From positions 75,646 to 139,645 of the forward strand of contig SCQK01000014.1 in the NCBI GenBank assembly GCA_004321885.1: a stretch of DNA of 64,000 nt. The letters run 5' to 3'. A program made the position numbers and the translations under genes. The DNA comes from Patescibacteria group bacterium (lineage in GTDB: Bacteria > Patescibacteriota > Patescibacteriia > Magasanikbacterales > GWA2-37-8). Below are positions 10,654 through 47,063 of this stretch, piece after piece. Below the pieces are notes generated by a model, which was not told the DNA's origin, did not search any database, and saw nothing but the letters and a program-made list of their open reading frames with translations. Position 1 is the first letter of the stretch, and every line of letters begins with the position of its first letter.

Positions 10654-10828
10654 TGGCCTCGCCTCTCGCTCGCTTCCGCTCGCTCGGGCTGGCCACCGCC
10701 TCGCGGTTTGGCTCGCCCATAAGCTCGCCAAACATCGCTCCGGCGTTCGAATCCCACCGCGAGCAAAACTATTTGCTCGCTGCCGGTTCCCAAAATTCAA
10801 ATCCGCCTAATTGCGGATTTTAATTTTG

Positions 10829-14949: not shown

Positions 14950-14990
14950 TTGGAGCGGGATACGAGAATCGAACTCGCATCTCTTGCTTG

Positions 14991-15104
14991 CCCCCACACC
15001 AATAATATTGAGCGGACGATGGGAATCGAACCCACGCCTCAACCTTGGGAAGGTCGCATACTACCATTATACTACGCCCGCGTATCGCACTATTGGTGTG
15101 GGGG
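14991..15104. mobile_element. 114 bp MITE-like element with 14 bp perfect inverted repeats (CCCCCACACCAATA...TATTGGTGTGGGGG) carrying a complete tRNA-Gly(CCC); 4 bp direct duplication CTTG at 14987-14990 and 15105-15108
   Basis: Inverted repeats and flanking duplication read directly. Removing the element plus one duplication copy restores an intact tRNA. Confidence 0.7.
15011..15081 (-). tRNA. tRNA-Gly(CCC), the cargo of the inserted element
   Basis: On the minus strand: GCGGGCG-TA-GTATAATGGTAGTAT-G-CGACC-TTCCCAA-GGTTG-AGGC-GTGGGTTCGATTCCCAT-CGTCCGC-T. Confidence 0.8.
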
Positions 15105-15147
15105 CTTGGGAAGCAAGCATACTGCCACTGTACTAATCCCGCGATTG

Positions 15148-15220
15148 AGCCGACCATGGGACTCGGACCCATAACCTACGGTTTACGATACCGTTGCTCT
15201 ACCAGTTGAGCTAGGTCGGC
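15148..15220 (-). tRNA. tRNA-Thr(CGT)
   Basis: On the minus strand: GCCGACC-TA-GCTCAACTGGTAGAGC-A-ACGGT-ATCGTAA-ACCGT-AGGTT-ATGGGTCCGAGTCCCAT-GGTCGGC-T. Confidence 0.75.
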
Positions 15221-15273
15221 GTTACTGCATACATTTTGCCAGAAAAACTGGCGCGGGTCAATGACCTGTGGTA

Positions 15274-17483: not shown

Positions 17484-18323
17484 ATGGAGAAAACAAAAAT
17501 CGCAATTTTTAAGGGCAAAAAAGTTCGCAAGATTCTATTTCAAAAAGAGTGGTGGTTTGTCATAAATGATGTCATTGAAATGTTGACGGATTCAGGTGAT
17601 CCAGCCCAATACTTTAAGAGATTAAAAGAAAGAGACGAGGAGCTGGCAAAAATCGTAGACAAAGGGGGGGTACAATTTGTACCACCCCTCATGCTTGTTG
17701 TAGAAACTGCCGGTGGCAAGCAAAAAATGTATTGCTGGAATACTGAGGGTATTTTTCGTCTTGTACAATCAATCCCGTCGCCAAAAGCCGAGCCATTTAA
17801 GCGCTGGCTGGCCAGGGTGGGCTATGAGCGTGTGCAGGAAATTGAGAACCCGGAATTGGCCACTAAACGAACGCGGATGTTATACAAGTTAAAAGGCTAT
17901 CCTGATAGTTGGATAGAAAAACGAATGCGCGGCATTGAAGTGCGCGAAACCCTGACTGACCAGTGGCAAAAACACGAAGTGAAACTGCAAAAAGAGTACG
18001 AAATACTAACCGCCGAAATCGCCCGTGCCACTTTCGGCCTTACTCCAAGCCAGCATAAAAAAGTTAAAGGTTTAAAAAGAGAAAATCTGCGCGACCACAT
18101 GAACGACTTGGAGTTGATTTTTTCCATGCTTGGCGAAGCCGCCACCACGGAAATCGTCCGCAACGAACATCCGCTTGGATTTGTGAAAAATAAAAAAGTT
18201 GCCAAACGCGGCGGCGGCGTGGCCGGTTTGGCCAGAAAGAAGATGGAAATAGAAACCGGTAAAAAAGTAGTGAGCAAAGAAAATTATCTGCCGCTGATAA
18301 AAAGAAAAAAGCGGTTAAAATAA
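17484..18323 (+). CDS. Bro-N domain protein (DinD/antirepressor-like)
   Basis: N-terminal IAIFKGKKVRKILFQKEWWFVINDVIEML matches the Bro-N fold signature. The C-terminus is basic. Confidence 0.4.
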   Translation: MEKTKIAIFKGKKVRKILFQKEWWFVINDVIEMLTDSGDPAQYFKRLKERDEELAKIVDKGGVQFVPPLMLVVETAGGKQKMYCWNTEGIFRLVQSIPSPKAEPFKRWLARVGYERVQEIENPELATKRTRMLYKLKGYPDSWIEKRMRGIEVRETLTDQWQKHEVKLQKEYEILTAEIARATFGLTPSQHKKVKGLKRENLRDHMNDLELIFSMLGEAATTEIVRNEHPLGFVKNKKVAKRGGGVAGLARKKMEIETGKKVVSKENYLPLIKRKKRLK

Positions 18324-29713: not shown

Positions 29714-29727
29714 ATATTTGTGGTTCC

Positions 29728-29800
29728 TCTCCCCTTTACAAGGGGGAGGCTTGTCACCACACCAAAAATTTTGGTGTGGTGACAGAGAGGGGGTAATCCT
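29728..29800. repeat. nested palindromes: family-A CCCCTTTACAAGGGGGAGG, then CACCACACCAAAAATTTTGGTGTGGTG (an empty inverted-repeat pair of the tRNA-Gly element family), then AGAGAGGGGG
   Basis: Read directly in the intergenic region between the LRR gene and the SHOCT gene. Confidence 0.65.
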
Positions 29801-30200: not shown

Positions 30201-30218
30201 CTCCTTTGAAAATAAATT

Positions 30219-30262
30219 CCGGGGTAGCGCTCCGCCAGCCGGCGGAGGTAGCGCAGTTGGCT
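30219..30262 (+). repeat. partial copy of the tRNA-Asn 5' half (acceptor plus D-arm) with a 13 bp hairpin inserted in the D-loop
   Basis: TCCGGGGTAGCGC-tccgccAGCcggcgga-GGTAGCGCAG compared with the tRNA TCCGGGGTAGCGCAGCGGTAGCGCAG at 30502-30527. Confidence 0.65.
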
Positions 30263-30511
30263 GTGTATACTGTTTACGCTATTTACAATCAAAAAAACGA
30301 TAAAATTTATATTGGACAAACAAAAGACATGGCCGAACGATTAAGGTTGCATAATGAAAAAATCCTTCTTGGTTATACTTATAGATTTGATGGAAATTGG
30401 AAATTAATTTATAGTGTACAGATCGAGAATAGACAAAAAGCTTTACAAAGAGAGAGACAACTTAAAAGTTTTAGAGGCAGAGAATTTATAAAACAATTTA
30501 TTCCGGGGTAG
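30258..30511 (+). CDS. GIY-YIG nuclease family protein (small, YhbQ/UPF0213-like)
   Basis: VYTVYAIYNQKNDKIYIGQTKDMAERLRLHNE is the GIY-YIG core. A GTG start at 30258 lies inside the tRNA-half copy, and the stop overlaps tRNA-Asn by 10 nt. Confidence 0.6.
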
Positions 30512-30573
30512 CGCAGCGGTAGCGCAGAGGACTGTTAATCCTTTGGTCGTGGGTTCGAATCCCACCCCCGGAG
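30502..30573 (+). tRNA. tRNA-Asn(GTT)
   Basis: TCCGGGG-TA-GCGCAGCGGTAGCGC-A-GAGGA-CTGTTAA-TCCTT-TGGTC-GTGGGTTCGAATCCCAC-CCCCGGA-G. Confidence 0.85.
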
Positions 30574-30578
30574 CAAAA

Positions 30579-30707: not shown

Positions 30708-30883
30708 GCGAAACGGGGGCTCTGGTGGACAAAAACTGCCAAAGAACCCGTAAAAAATGTCGGCCGAACTTTATGTTGGCCAAAAGCAAACTTTTCTCTT
30801 TGATATTGAATTACGATTGTTAAAGTGATATAATCAAGTCAATGAGCGTCCCATTCTTGCTATCTTATGTATACTATCATACT

Positions 30884-31090
30884 ATGGAAGAAAAGAAAAC
30901 AATCGGCGAAAAAATAAAAAAATGGAGAGCGAAGAAAGATTTGACACAAGACGCCTTGGCAAAAAAGGCGGATATTCCATATAGCACGATTGCTAAAATT
31001 GAATCAGATGTTATTACGAGGCCAACAATACAGACAGTGCAAAAGCTGGCCGTTGGTTTGGGTATAACACTTGATGAATTATTAAAATAG
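30884..31090 (+). CDS. XRE-family HTH protein, probable C (controller) protein of the R-M module
   Basis: TIGEKIKKWRAKKDLTQDALAKKADIPYSTIAKIE is an HTH_XRE motif, about 70 aa. An extended -10 TGATATAAT sits at 30826-30834, and the gene lies immediately upstream of the methyltransferase (stop-ATG overlap). The ORF also opens at 30842, a possible leaderless start. Confidence 0.55.
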   Translation: MEEKKTIGEKIKKWRAKKDLTQDALAKKADIPYSTIAKIESDVITRPTIQTVQKLAVGLGITLDELLK

Positions 31091-31091
31091 T

Positions 31092-31973
31092 ATGGTTAAA
31101 GGTCACAAAGTGAAAAATGAAAAAATCGATAAAAAAATAGCTTTTGGTTGGTATGGCGGTAAGTTTAGTCATCTTGACTGGCTTTTGCCGCTGTTGCCGG
31201 AAACCGATCATTTTTGTGAGCCGTTTGGTGGCTCTGCTGCCGTTATCATAAACAGAAATCCTTCTTTAATCGAAACATATAATGATTTAGATGGCGAGGT
31301 AGTTAATTTCTTCAGAGTATTAAGGGAACATCCTAACGATCTTATAAGACAAATTGGGCTTACTCCATTTTCGAGGGAAGAATTCAAATATGCTATTGAA
31401 CACGAAGATGATAAAAATCTTTCAGATATTGAGAGGGCTAGGTCTTTTTTTATCCGCGCAAGGCAGGTTAGGACTGGACTTGCTCAAAAAGCTACTTCTG
31501 GTAGATGGGCAAATTGTAAATTAACTTCCAGAGCCGGAATGTCAGGTGCGGTCTCGAGGTGGTTGGGAAGTGTTGACGGGCTAACAGAGATTGCGGAAAG
31601 GCTTTTACGAATACAAATTGAAAATGCTCCTGCAATTGAAGTTGTAAGGCGATATGATAGCCCACAGACCTTATTTTACTGTGATCCTCCGTATACACAT
31701 GATTCTCGAGGTGATATAAATGCCTATAAATTTGAAATGGACAGGGATGCGCATGTCGAACTGGCCGAAACACTAAAACAGGTTAAGGGGTTAGTCGCTA
31801 TATCGGGTTACGACTCTCCCCTAATGAACGAGCTGTATCAAGGATGGAAAAAAATCGCTGGGCCAGTAAAAAATGCAAATTCTATACAACAACCTAGACA
31901 AGAAATTTTATGGGTTAATTATAATATTAATGATAAATCTTTATGGAAAAAGCAGCAAAGATCCTTGATATAA
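31092..31973 (+). CDS. N6-adenine DNA methyltransferase, Dam/D12 class
   Basis: FxGxG motif EPFGGSAAV and catalytic DPPY (LFYCDPPYTHDS). Confidence 0.8.
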   Translation: MVKGHKVKNEKIDKKIAFGWYGGKFSHLDWLLPLLPETDHFCEPFGGSAAVIINRNPSLIETYNDLDGEVVNFFRVLREHPNDLIRQIGLTPFSREEFKYAIEHEDDKNLSDIERARSFFIRARQVRTGLAQKATSGRWANCKLTSRAGMSGAVSRWLGSVDGLTEIAERLLRIQIENAPAIEVVRRYDSPQTLFYCDPPYTHDSRGDINAYKFEMDRDAHVELAETLKQVKGLVAISGYDSPLMNELYQGWKKIAGPVKNANSIQQPRQEILWVNYNINDKSLWKKQQRSLI

Positions 31974-33064
31974 TTTTGAAAAAAACTAATGGGCATCTAG
32001 AAAAACCTTTTATAAAAAATAGGGAGATTTTGCGGAAAATAGAATTTATTTCTCATAATATTCAAAATCGAGCCGGCGTCCGCCTTATTATGTCTTGCTT
32101 ACTGGCGAAACTTGACGATCCAAAAGTTGATGTAAGAAAACCTTATACGGAGATTGGCAGTCGTGATAGTTTTTCGGGCAGAACATATGACGAGGCCTAT
32201 GTCGGCAGTTTTATCACTAAACATCACTTGCCGTGTAATCCAACAACAGCGTTTTTGACGCCAGCTCTACGTAATAGAAATATTGTACTTACGCCAAAAG
32301 TAAATTTAGTCGGCAGGCCACCAGAAATTTATCAATACGTTCTCGACCTCCTAGAATTAGTATTTAAAGGATTTCTTGCCCCAGCCATTCTGCTTGCGGA
32401 AATAATGCGACAACTTGTTCTTTTACGAGATGAAAATCAAAAACGTATAAAATCTTTGTTAAAGAATCTCGGGAAAAATGGTAGTGTGCCTCTTTCGGGT
32501 GAAGACATAATAAAACTTATTGAGCAACATTTAAATTGCAAAGGAGCCAGCAGACTTCCCGTACTTATCGTGGCCGCTGCTTACAACACTATTGGAAATT
32601 TCATCCAAGAAAAAGTATTACCTATCTTTTCTCACAATTCTGCAGATAAACAAACTGGTGCGCTCGGCGATATACAAATTACGTTAATTAATGACGAGAA
32701 TGTAGTAACTAGTTATGAGATGAAGATGAAGAAGGTCACAAAGGACGACATTGATATCGCTCTGCAAAAAATTTCGGGAGTTAAGTACAAAATAGATAAT
32801 TATATTTTTATAACGACGGATATAATAGATGATTCGGTAAAAGAATATGCGAAATCACTTTATGAGCAAACCGGCGGAATAGAGATAGTTGTCTTAGATT
32901 GTATTAGTTTTCTTAGGCATTTTATTCATTTATTCCACCGCTTCAGATTGCCATATCTTGAAGAGTATCAAAAGTTGGTGATGGGTGAAGCAGACAGCGC
33001 GGTCAGTCAGCCCCTTAAAGAGGCATTTCTTGCTCTTCGACAGGCAACAGAAAGCGCGAATTAA
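31943..33064 (+). CDS. putative type II restriction endonuclease (PD-(D/E)xK-like)
   Basis: Overlaps the methyltransferase gene by 31 nt. GDIQITLINDENVVTSYEMK fits a D...ExK nuclease motif. Its position in a C-M-R array supports the call. Confidence 0.45.
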   Translation: MEKAAKILDIILKKTNGHLEKPFIKNREILRKIEFISHNIQNRAGVRLIMSCLLAKLDDPKVDVRKPYTEIGSRDSFSGRTYDEAYVGSFITKHHLPCNPTTAFLTPALRNRNIVLTPKVNLVGRPPEIYQYVLDLLELVFKGFLAPAILLAEIMRQLVLLRDENQKRIKSLLKNLGKNGSVPLSGEDIIKLIEQHLNCKGASRLPVLIVAAAYNTIGNFIQEKVLPIFSHNSADKQTGALGDIQITLINDENVVTSYEMKMKKVTKDDIDIALQKISGVKYKIDNYIFITTDIIDDSVKEYAKSLYEQTGGIEIVVLDCISFLRHFIHLFHRFRLPYLEEYQKLVMGEADSAVSQPLKEAFLALRQATESAN

Positions 33065-37990: not shown

Positions 37991-38088
37991 AAAAATTGTG
38001 CTATACTATTTAGGGCCTGTCGCCGGATACGCTTTCGTGACGAAATGGTATTCGGCGACAGGCCCATTTATGAAGAAGAATCATTTGT

Positions 38089-46508: not shown

Positions 46509-47063
46509 TTAGAGCCTGTCCCGAACTTGTTTCGGGAGGGAGGATAGAGGAGGGAGTATGTGTATTTTTCTCTTGTTCCCTCCCGCGTATTCAATTCTGA
46601 CGGTTATTATTTTCGGCCCTTGGCCGATATTTTTCAAAAGCTCTTTTATTTTCTCCGGCCACTCAATCGCGCAAATCGTATCCGGCCTGCCCAAATAATC
46701 CAGCGCGCCGATTTCCACAAGTTCGTGCTCATTTTTTAGCCGGTAGGTATCTATATGGACGAATTTTTGTGTCCCCCTGCCCCCACACCAAAATTTTTGG
46801 TGTGGGGGCCTGCCCGAGGGGGACTTTGAGGGGGGTGGGAGCAAGTACACATTCATCAACGCGAACGTCGGACTGGTAATTTTTTCTTTGACGCCCAAGC
46901 CGGCGGCAATGCCTTTCACCAATGCAGTTTTGCCCGCGCCCAGTTCGCCGTAAAGCAATAAAATATCGCCGCCGCGCAATTTTCGCGCCAAAGCCGCGCC
47001 AAACGCAAATGTTTCTTTTTCGTTTTTCGTGATAATTTTTTGATTGTTTTGACGGGTTGACAT
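46509..47063 (-). CDS. tsaE: tRNA threonylcarbamoyladenosine biosynthesis protein TsaE with a 23 aa in-frame palindromic insertion
   Basis: LLYGELGAGKTALVKGIAAGLG...SPTFALMNVY...HIDTYRL. Start at MSTRQNN; the ORF extends upstream to 47138. The insert LLPPPSKSPSGRPPHQKFWCGGRGTQ lies between the two conserved blocks. Confidence 0.7.
   Translation of the reverse strand: MSTRQNNQKIITKNEKETFAFGAALARKLRGGDILLLYGELGAGKTALVKGIAAGLGVKEKITSPTFALMNVYLLPPPSKSPSGRPPHQKFWCGGRGTQKFVHIDTYRLKNEHELVEIGALDYLGRPDTICAIEWPEKIKELLKNIGQGPKIITVRIEYAGGNKRKIHILPPLSSLPKQVRDRL
46771..46843. repeat. composite palindromic insert: outer GTCCCCCTG...CGAGGGGGAC, enclosing CCCCCACACCAAAATTTTTGGTGTGGGGG, plus a GAGGGGGGTGGGAGC tail
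   Basis: The inner palindrome equals the two 14 bp inverted repeats of the tRNA-Gly-carrying element joined head to head. The outer part matches the grpE insert at 53838-53888. Confidence 0.7.

Follow-up and report, generated by a model that had tools for sequence, protein, structure and literature searches.

Architecture of the Nested tRNA-Gly Locus

The DNA analyzed here, referred to as the window, is a 64,000-nt stretch of a metagenome-assembled contig (SCQK01000014.1) from an uncultured, Magasanikbacteria-like member of the Patescibacteria. On its minus strand, a transfer RNA (tRNA) gene for glycine, tRNA-Gly(CCC), is split within the anticodon arm by a palindrome-armed insert that encloses a second, complete tRNA-Gly(CCC) gene. 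Read in the sense of the tRNAs, the locus runs tRNA-Thr(CGT), outer 5′ part, arm 1, leader, inner tRNA, trailer, arm 2, and outer 3′ part. The outer gene occupies 15142–15105 (38 nt) and 14990–14951 (40 nt), together 78 nt, or 74 nt including CCA when one copy of a repeated CAAG is removed (15142–15105 plus 14986–14951). The insert between its halves spans 15104–14991 (114 bp), and the net insertion, counted with the extra CAAG, is 118 bp. Because CAAG is repeated, the break can be placed anywhere from nucleotides 35/36 to 39/40 of the outer tRNA, and the boundary can be set at 35/36.

The outer 5′ part (GCGGGATTAGTACAGTGGCAGTATGCTTGCTTCCCAAG; 15105–15142, minus strand) provides nucleotides 1–39, comprising the acceptor strand, the D arm, the 5′ strand of the anticodon stem, the anticodon loop, and G39, and it aligned to positions 1–39 of a tRNA-Gly profile in nhmmer (E = 1e-8). 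The 3′ part (14951–14986, minus strand) provides nucleotides 40–76, from the 3′ strand of the anticodon stem through the variable loop, T arm, and acceptor strand to U73 and CCA; it aligned to profile positions 35–72 (E = 5e-7), and the full 3′ stretch from 14990 to 14951 reads CAAGCAAGAGATGCGAGTTCGATTCTCGTATCCCGCTCCA. The extra CAAG (14987–14990, minus strand) may be either a 4-bp target duplication or the right-end tetranucleotide of the insert itself. Once joined, the 74-nt outer gene was called as tRNA-Gly(CCC) by ARAGORN, and its minimum-free-energy fold is a perfect cloverleaf.

Within the insert, arm 1 (CCCCCACACCAATA; 15091–15104, minus strand), which lies 5′ of the inner tRNA in the tRNA sense, and arm 2 (TATTGGTGTGGGGG; 14991–15004, minus strand) are complementary at 14/14 positions, or at 15/15 when the flanking G and C are counted. 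A 9-nt leader (GTGCGATAC; 15082–15090, minus strand) connects arm 1 to the inner tRNA and has no counterpart flanking a near-identical gene in another genome (L153, below), and a trailer, CAATAT (15005–15010, minus strand), connects the inner tRNA to arm 2. The inner tRNA-Gly(CCC) (15081–15011, minus strand) is complete apart from CCA, which is not encoded, was identified by both ARAGORN and Rfam (tRNA model, 63 bits), shares ∼72% identity with the outer gene, and is presumably the working gene. Scans of the unjoined window with ARAGORN and Rfam returned this inner gene and not the outer one, and ARAGORN run with intron options did not report the outer gene either, calling it only after the halves had been joined by hand. 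Annotators should be aware that standard tRNA finders miss such outer genes and their remnants. When re-read from the window, the coordinates and sequences were as an earlier reading, made from the sequence alone (the sequence-only reading), had given them, and its account of outer halves forming a clean tRNA-Gly(CCC) with CCA, of perfect 14-bp inverted repeats, and of a second complete tRNA of different sequence and the same anticodon is borne out.

The tRNA-Thr(CGT) gene (15147–15220, minus strand; ARAGORN and Rfam) lies 4 nt upstream of the outer Gly gene and is probably co-transcribed with it; a promoter-like TTGACC-17-CAAAAT, a consensus match only, is found at 15261–15233 on the minus strand. 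Genes for translin, a Mur ligase, DivIC, a parvulin-type peptidyl-prolyl isomerase (PPIase), FtsE, and FtsX surround the locus, with the PPIase and FtsE as flanking neighbors, and the insert itself carries no open reading frame (ORF). Homologs of the PPIase share at most 60% identity with it and come mostly from Candidatus Magasanikbacteria. The PPIase stop codon is 1 nt away from the CCA end of the outer tRNA. In the window, Thr precedes Gly and the two are encoded opposite to the PPIase; the 53 other tRNA-Gly(CCC) genes in related loci all share the strand of the PPIase, with Gly before Thr where both are present. A simple inversion of the tRNA block was considered and rejected, the window reading Thr-Gly on the minus strand and its relatives Gly-Thr, nearly all on the plus strand. 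Besides being invaded, the window's locus has been rearranged.

An Uninterrupted Counterpart and the Type of the Inner Gene

Relatives were sampled as 68 syntenic loci totaling 534 kb, plus a few added later; a profile search of genome contigs with an alignment of the whole PPIase protein contributed at least seven useful loci. In what follows, L-numbers label related loci or contigs. L093 has an uninterrupted gene (...GCTTGCTTCCCAAGCAAGAGATGCG...) that matches the joined outer gene at 71/72 positions, and the closest relatives by PPIase, L151 and L152, carry uninterrupted genes of the same type. A third locus, L150, has the uninterrupted 5′ portion of such a gene, its contig ending inside it. 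Given the L093 match and the intact L151 and L152 genes, we conclude that the window carries a net insertion of 118 bp in a gene of the resident type; an insertion had also been supposed by the sequence-only reading, which suggested examining orthologous loci for an uninterrupted tRNA-Gly. The empty-site allele would read ...TTCCCAAG joined directly to CAAGAGAT....

Clustering of all Gly genes gave three main types. Type A includes the window's outer gene and is found in uninterrupted form in most of the related Magasanikbacteria-like genomes. L110, L112, L128, and L131 each have a lone gene of type B, to which the window's inner gene and the outer genes of L124 and L136 also belong; in other lineages this type is the resident gene at the same locus. 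Lone genes of type C are present in L009, L090, L108, and L122, among others, and the genes nested inside those of L124 and L136 are of this type as well. The window's inner gene is 93–95% identical to the four lone type B genes and 71/72 identical to a gene in L153, also present in L154 and L155. A local duplication as the inner gene's origin was rejected: inner and outer genes are only ∼72% identical to each other, and each matches a gene in another genome at 71/72 positions.

L153, L154, and L155, which were reached by a protein search with an antisense reading frame of the nested region as bait, are three assemblies of the closest genome found (73% identity to the window in FtsE and 60% in FtsX). 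The tRNA-Thr gene beside their Gly gene is only 66/74 identical to the window's. At L153 2990–3125 (and likewise in L154 and L155), one finds, in order, nucleotides 1–21 of a type A gene, a GC-rich hairpin (CCCCCGTCGC…GGCGGG), TAAATAT, and the type B gene, whose flanks are unrelated to those of the type B gene in the window. Two diverged genomes thus carry the same cargo in type A genes, each broken at a different point, which argues for a recent spread of type B; its unrelated flanks and different break point in L153 argue against a fixed unit of arms and cargo. The inner gene is of a foreign type and, on these comparisons, recently shared. A similar hairpin-plus-TAAAT motif is located directly upstream of the Gly gene in L008, and a comparable hairpin lacking the TAAAT motif in L122.

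Recurrence of Nesting in Related Genomes

Nesting was searched for by trimming 0–60 nt from each side of every ARAGORN tRNA, rejoining the flanks, and rerunning ARAGORN. The scan covered 170 tRNAs in 1.7 Mb, with control loci that held only 29 tRNAs and are thus a weak control. True same-anticodon nesting was found only for the window Gly gene, the Thr(CGT) gene of L003/L004, and the Gly genes of L124 and L136; the other matches were discarded as different-anticodon artefacts of closely adjacent tRNA genes. L013 and further cases were added by searches with tRNA-fragment profiles (nhmmer) and inspection by eye. A tRNA-like 3′ fragment at 10739–10767 of the window, near tRNA-Lys, was judged unconvincing.

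The right junction of a Gly case in L013, TGTGGCGGGCAAG|CAAG, is homologous to that of the window; the left arm has eroded there, and the outer gene breaks off after the T loop. In L136 (3166–3358) and L124 (4112–4290) a type C Gly gene is nested in a type B gene between identical arms, CCCGCCCGCTTCG / CGAAGCGCTGGCGGG, followed by CAGG. The window's inner type is itself the split outer gene in these two genomes, and nesting thus occurs in series. Between L124 and L136 the flanks are ∼35% identical, the outer halves 59/66, the arms plus CAGG 36/37, and the inner tRNAs 57/72 (79%).

Threonine genes show the same arrangement. At L003 7200–7381 (equivalent to L004 4798–4979), a Thr(CGT) gene is nested in a Thr(CGT) gene at the D arm (21/22) between imperfect arms. 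The Thr element of L013 (8300–8456) has perfect 13-bp arms (TTATCCCGATAGA / TCTATCGGGATAA) within a decayed outer gene, and L012 (10655–10790) has layered remnants, with a Thr gene followed first by a right arm and an old 3′ half and then by a second right arm. In every independent nested case (Gly in L013 and L124/L136; Thr in L003/L004 and L013/L012) the inner gene has the anticodon of the gene it interrupts, which extends to other genomes the sequence-only reading's view that payload and target share one identity. All four Gly cases can be placed between anticodon nucleotides 35 and 36, as can a hairpin in a tRNA-Gln copy of L011, and breaks at 21/22 are shared by the L003 Thr element and L153. 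The L011 copy differs in layout, being truncated and interrupted at 35/36 by a 40-nt hairpin that has no cargo.

Further arrangements are present at other loci. An 85-nt tRNA-like gene (46 bits with the Rfam tRNA model) takes the place of tRNA-Gly in L012 (10440–10524); a long AT-rich hairpin stands in for its anticodon arm, and this may be an outer gene with a cargo-less palindrome. In L009 (7235–7410), L108 (4049–4190), and L090 (4722–4862, equivalent to L138), a type C Gly gene is followed by a 48–87-nt hairpin spacer (…GCCCAGTCGAATGACTGGGC) and then by a 19–21-nt copy of a tRNA-Gly 3′ end starting from the T loop. The L090 remnant, which is of type A and includes CCA, keeps only the last ∼20 nt of that gene downstream of the type C gene, with a different T-loop arrangement. 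This layout is a second kind of event at the same locus, reminiscent of an attachment site. A tRNA-Thr 5′ fragment (nt 1–27) at L112 2554–2579 is followed by unrelated non-coding sequence, and neither a 3′ part of the fragment nor an Rfam intron was found on that contig.

GIY-YIG Cassettes and Other Genes of the Window

Comparison of ∼60 window ORFs with Pfam returned no transposase, integrase, reverse transcriptase, RtcB, RNA ligase, or splicing endonuclease. The scanned ORFs are housekeeping genes, with the exception of a restriction-modification module, a Bro-N protein, and one GIY-YIG protein. The putative module (30842–33064), in which a helix-turn-helix protein, a D12-class adenine methyltransferase, and a 373-residue ORF lie together, is probably a restriction-modification system, and it and the Bro-N domain protein (17484–18323) are the only other hints of mobile DNA in the window.

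The GIY-YIG ORF (∼30263–30511; Pfam E = 2e-15) belongs to a composite at 30218–30574 in which nucleotides 1–13 of tRNA-Asn are followed by a 16-nt hairpin (TCCGCCAGCCGGCGGA) flanked by an 8-nt repeat (GGTAGCGC), the GIY-YIG ORF, and an intact tRNA-Asn(GTT) (30502–30574) whose first bases the end of the ORF overlaps. The same plan recurs at L011 4285–4696 and L008 10510–10908, where a 5′ copy of tRNA-Gln with GC-rich hairpins precedes a GIY-YIG ORF and an intact tRNA-Gln; the hairpin site within the copy is 35/36 in L011 and after nucleotide 10 in L008. Of the five GIY-YIG ORFs in the 534 kb, three terminate on a tRNA gene's first bases, and each of the three is preceded by a 5′ fragment of the same tRNA interrupted by GC-rich hairpins. 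At L110 1567–2066, a hairpin (TCCGCCCGCCGGCGGA) that is the same as that of the tRNA-Asn cassette lies with a GIY-YIG gene just downstream of a type B Gly gene. The layout of L153 (old 5′ stump, hairpin, new tRNA) is that of a GIY-YIG cassette minus the reading frame. Together with the precedent of the phage endonuclease SegB (see section “Comparison With Known Systems”), this likeness suggests break-induced repair or homing, with the nuclease gene lost afterwards, as a reasonable route by which such a locus could arise.

The Palindromic Repeat Family of the Arms

The arm sequence has four matches in the window at ≤2 mismatches, compared to 0.41 expected, and none of 100 shuffles reached four. 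It belongs to a palindrome family with at least four copies in ∼65 kb. Its usual form is a short hairpin with a 1-nt loop, and the short copies are the centers of longer elements of ∼60–80 nt. One short copy (GCCCCCACACCAAAA T TTTTGGTGTGGGGGC; 46779–46809, no strand assigned) has CCTG on both sides and lies in frame inside tsaE. Here (46765–46835, with tsaE on the minus strand) the copy keeps the reading frame, the Pfam TsaE match falls in two stretches, and alignment places the ∼19–20 added residues (…LLPPPSKSPSGRPPHQKFWCGGRGTQK…) at a loop that has 8 residues in the homolog labeled P0131; other patescibacterial TsaE proteins have different variable inserts at the same loop. A variant short copy (TGTCACCACACCAAAA A TTTTGGTGTGGTGACA; 29752–29784, no strand assigned) is intergenic, just upstream of the start of a leucine-rich-repeat protein gene, and arm 1 belongs to the same family as these hairpins and a further copy at the very start (1–45) of L149, a Logan contig of the same genome from just upstream of the window. 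Copies at 29718–29800 and at L149 1–45 both lie directly upstream of gene starts and are each followed by a G-rich, ribosome-binding-site-like box. In Logan contigs from this sample, breaks fall at the tRNA genes and at or close to these palindromes. A separate intergenic palindrome at 38013–38065 has 26-nt arms, a 1-nt center (GGGCCTGTCGCCGGATACGCTTTCGT / ACGAAATGGTATTCGGCGACAGGCCC), and a CCTGTC(C)GCC motif that is also present in the L003 Thr arms.

Tetranucleotides next to the arms are a recurrent feature. Short palindrome copies have CAGG or CAGA just outside an arm, in two of them followed by the G-rich box, and in the related nested elements the tetranucleotide stands outside the right arm only (GGCGGG-CAAG in L013, GGCGGG-CAGG in L124/L136). 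CAAG, CAGG, or CAGA follows the right arm in most copies, and no Y1 transposase was found among the window ORFs. Flanking repeats are present at the insert (CAAG/CAAG) and at the tsaE copy (CCTG/CCTG), and are absent from 29752–29784, L013, L124, L136, L003, and L011. The sequence-only reading had taken CTTG/CTTG (CAAG on the minus strand) as a duplication of the target. The tetranucleotide is indeed present on both sides, but its status is ambiguous because the intact target already reads CAAGCAAG and because copies carry a tetranucleotide of their own; judging from the other copies, the extra 4 nt may belong to the element.

These features bear on a possible origin as a non-autonomous transposon resembling a miniature inverted-repeat transposable element (MITE), with the 14-bp arms as terminal inverted repeats, the tRNA as a passenger, a transposase acting in trans, a 4-bp target duplication, and the short hairpins as copies from which the passenger was deleted. 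Perfect inverted repeats of 14 or 15 bp, the two flanking duplications, and the multiple copies of the arm sequence would all fit, as would the identical arms around diverged cargo in L124 and L136, expected if an enzyme needs only the ends. We nevertheless regard this origin as unlikely. The arm–tRNA–arm unit occurs once, compared to four places for the arm sequence in the ∼65 kb covered; the target's own CAAGCAAG leaves the duplication ambiguous, and L013, L124, L136, L003, and the L011 hairpin have none, with CAAG or CAGG on the right side only in the nested elements; the short copies are centers of larger elements and not bare ends; and the 64 kb hold no transposase gene. The arms and their cargo also vary independently, L153 having the same cargo (71/72) within other, unrelated flanks and L124/L136 having identical arms around cargo only 79% identical. 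A transposable-element-like unit was the sequence-only reading's own proposal, and it is supported in part: the insertion stands and the arms belong to a dispersed repeat, and movement as a single unit stays unsupported. Its suggested search for further copies of the inverted-repeat pair found the arm sequence again, with only one cargo-bearing copy in this genome's data. A scan of viral contigs for the arms gave six unrelated hairpins with a short loop and no match enclosing a cargo of 70–100 nt.

Since the arms normally occur as hairpins with a 1-nt loop, the tRNA may instead sit in the center of a pre-existing palindrome rather than between transposon ends. Taken further, a palindrome would first have inserted into the anticodon loop and killed the resident gene, and a tRNA-Gly would later have been captured at the hairpin tip as a fragile or targeted site. 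Insertion sequences that target the centers of repetitive extragenic palindromic (REP) sequences exist, cargo-less hairpins are present in tRNA loops (L011 Gln at 35/36, the window's tRNA-Asn fragment, the L012 tRNA-like gene), and in L153, L008, and L122 a whole hairpin lies just upstream of the tRNA and not around it. Such a two-step course would however call for a pair of rare events at a single spot, and this in four or more independent cases. On its own it does not account for the shared anticodon of the captured gene, and it is at odds with L124 and L136, which share arm-to-leader junctions, so that there the unit was inherited or moved whole. We consider it decidedly improbable.

Introns, Splicing, and RNA Folding

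A third possibility is that nesting is a device at the level of RNA, in which RNase P and RNase Z, or RNase III acting within the arm helix, would cut out the inner tRNA, and the outer halves would be rejoined or function as a split tRNA, such that both tRNAs are made. Several observations are compatible with this. For the transcript, a fold of nested cloverleaves is predicted (z of −4.8 in the window, −3.7 in L136, and −4.7 in L003), and arm 2 pairs with arm 1 in a long helix; the outer halves are intact in these three elements; and 35/36 is a characteristic group I intron site and insertion hotspot in patescibacterial tRNA genes (PMC13011429). The arms of L124 and L136 are more conserved than the inner tRNA, paired differences between arms preserve complementarity (AATA/TATT vs. 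AAAA/TTTT; CCGCC/GGCGG vs. CCCCC/GGGGG), and the L003 arms contain G-U pairs in the sense strand only. From these last three features there are hints that the arms also serve as an RNA processing stalk.

Known intron classes do not account for the insert. Rfam scans of the window and seven related loci, run both at gathering thresholds and by E-value, returned tRNAs only. A group I intron or other ribozyme was rejected on the lack of a catalytic core in these scans and on length, the insert of 114–118 nt comparing with a reported range of 184–894 nt for tRNA group I introns (PMC13011429). A bulge-helix-bulge intron was rejected as well: the fold has a one-sided 5-nt bulge (CCCAA) on the 5′ strand inside a continuous helix, and the outer anticodon lies in that bulge. 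Cuts by RNase P and RNase Z followed by ligation would leave a hairpin of ∼40 nt in the anticodon arm, and the window encodes neither an RNA ligase nor a splicing endonuclease. The decayed outer genes of L013 and L012, the truncated L011 Gln copy, and the L090 remnant argue against a true intron, and L153 retains only a 21-nt type A stump. We therefore hold an RNA-level device to be very improbable, and the same goes for the intron that the sequence-only reading had offered as its alternative, no conserved single long RNA with an intron-like signature being found. A chimera of two strains with different tRNA-Gly genes, conceivable for a contig from a metagenome assembly whose junction lacks an independent assembly in a hard-to-assemble region (same-run Logan contigs stop at ∼14979 and restart at ∼15175), has next to no probability, as the junctions are tRNA-to-arm and not tRNA-to-tRNA, with an arm that recurs elsewhere in the same genome, and as homologous or analogous nesting is present in the independent projects of L013, L124, and L136, in two assemblies for L003/L004, and in three for L153–L155.

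A Model of Insertion and Replacement

We think it probable, well short of certain, that the resident gene was killed, and replaced in the same event, when a palindrome-armed tRNA-Gly gene of the same anticodon recently inserted into it. In this model, a resident type A tRNA-Gly(CCC) gene would have been broken recently in its anticodon arm by 118 bp consisting of two arms of a dispersed palindrome that enclose a complete type B tRNA-Gly(CCC). From the promoter of tRNA-Thr, a single transcript would run through Thr and the outer 5′ half, cross the first arm, the inner tRNA, and the second arm, and take in the outer 3′ half; the arms and the split anticodon stem would form a long helix with the inner cloverleaf at its tip; and the inner tRNA would be freed by RNase P and 3′ processing. 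With their anticodon in a helix bulge and neither a ribozyme nor a bulge-helix-bulge, the outer halves would be unable to make a usable tRNA. Relatives show outer genes to be dispensable, several being decayed or truncated. We infer that the inner gene is the working tRNA-Gly(CCC) and that the outer gene is dead. Inactivation of the host gene and its replacement by the cargo had been put forward in the sequence-only reading; the split outer gene and complete inner gene on which that rests are present, and the dead or working status follows from them by argument. Given a dead outer gene, its pristine condition (one difference from L093) and the perfect arms indicate that the event is young. Because tRNA-Gly(CCC) and tRNA-Thr(CGU) are redundant isoacceptors, whose codons can be read by the UCC and UGU tRNAs, disruption of these genes may be tolerated.

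The origin of the arrangement is the least certain part of the model. The window may offer one snapshot of a lineage-wide turnover in which incoming tRNA genes of the same anticodon land in the loops of the resident gene, the old halves decay, and they are then deleted. Breakage in tRNA-gene and palindrome loops, with subsequent repair or homing that draws on a donor allele, would be the likeliest driver; it is suggested by the GIY-YIG-plus-tRNA cassettes, in which an old tRNA fragment, a GC-rich hairpin, and a new tRNA follow one another. The main alternative driver is a dedicated transposase that acts on the arms. As a more tentative extension, which we think possible but less likely to be right than wrong, Magasanikbacteria-like Patescibacteria would harbor, as a class of their own, selfish, self-compensating, hairpin-armed tRNA cassettes that home into loops of a same-anticodon resident gene (D loop at 21/22, anticodon loop at 35/36), destroying and replacing it in successive waves across lineages, from A to B to C, maybe driven by minimal GIY-YIG nucleases that cut the tips of cruciforms at tRNA genes and palindromes.

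Several points weigh against insertion with replacement, or against the driver proposed for it. The origin of the first arm–tRNA–arm unit is not explained. No nuclease or transposase gene lies at the Gly locus, the window's GIY-YIG gene being 15 kb away in the tRNA-Asn cassette; the GIY-YIG cassettes have another architecture, duplicating only a 5′ tRNA fragment with no outer 3′ half; and their proteins, at 86–95 residues, have no obvious DNA-recognition domain. The outer halves and arms of L124 and L136 are better conserved than the inner tRNA, which would fit a functional, selected outer gene and arms, and the two sense-strand-only G-U pairs in the L003 arms hint at a constraint on the RNA. 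Finally, all data are metagenome assemblies, and the sampling is biased toward one syntenic locus.

If insertion with replacement is correct, tRNA genes in reduced genomes would turn over and spread horizontally by a route that is new. Transfer RNA genes are usually seen as passive landing pads for mobile DNA; in the present case what arrives is itself a tRNA gene, which has the anticodon of the gene it disables and lies within it. The logic would be like that of a gene drive with no need for an intron, and the abundant domain-only GIY-YIG proteins would acquire a testable function.

Comparison With Known Systems

No bacterial tRNA gene nested in a same-anticodon tRNA gene was found in the published literature, in a search that was incomplete and does not prove novelty. 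A functional precedent, of the kind known as intronless homing, is SegB of T-even phages (T4/T6), a free-standing GIY-YIG homing endonuclease that cuts inside tRNA genes (PMC13096335) and drives preferential inheritance and amplification of the tRNA region, with microhomology between the segB 3′ end and a tRNA 5′ end (PMC13096335; PMC2988022). GIY-YIG genes in the window and in relatives similarly abut tRNA genes and are accompanied by duplicated tRNA fragments. The nested Gly locus differs in having no endonuclease gene in or next to the insert, the proteins here are 86–95 residues long, consist of the catalytic domain only, and are encoded on a bacterial chromosome and not in a phage, and the nesting of a whole tRNA in a tRNA has not been described for SegB.

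Group I introns in tRNA genes of Patescibacteria share the target, anticodon-loop DNA, and the Gly and Gln insertions reported here can be placed at the same position, 35/36 (PMC13011429). The insert differs from them in having no group I core by Rfam, in its length (114–118 nt vs. ≥184 nt), and in being mostly tRNA, and the outer genes decay in relatives with no sign of splicing. Integrative elements that target tRNA genes are alike in their choice of target and in that the incoming DNA repairs tRNA function, and the arrangement in L009, L108, and L090, where a tRNA is followed by a repeat of a 3′ end, is in the manner of an attachment site. However, there is no integrase in the window, the insert is only 118 bp, its flanks are two gene halves with no 3′-end repeat, and restoration would come from a whole nested second gene instead of a 3′ segment completing the interrupted one.

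The disrupted tRNAs of archaea, e.g., the split tRNAs of Nanoarchaeum, are similar in that a GC-rich complementary pair would hold the outer halves together. Here the host is bacterial (TsaE, FtsEX, MurG, DnaG, and RpoD), there is no bulge-helix-bulge and no splicing endonuclease in the window, and the intervening piece is itself a tRNA.

With respect to the arms, the nearest likeness is to MITEs and to the Rickettsia palindromic elements (RPEs), whose features we take from a review (PMC10969869) that does not mention tRNA at all in its treatment of MITEs. Like both, the repeat described here is a dispersed, non-coding palindromic family without a transposase of its own. As with RPEs, copies lie in frame in a protein gene (here tsaE), in intergenic DNA, and in RNA genes, and the same family that splits the tRNA gene thus remodels proteins in frame much as RPEs do. 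There is no sequence relationship between the two, and the host belongs to another phylum. What sets the window's element apart from RPEs and MITEs is that one copy holds a complete, functional-looking tRNA gene, inside a tRNA gene with the same anticodon.

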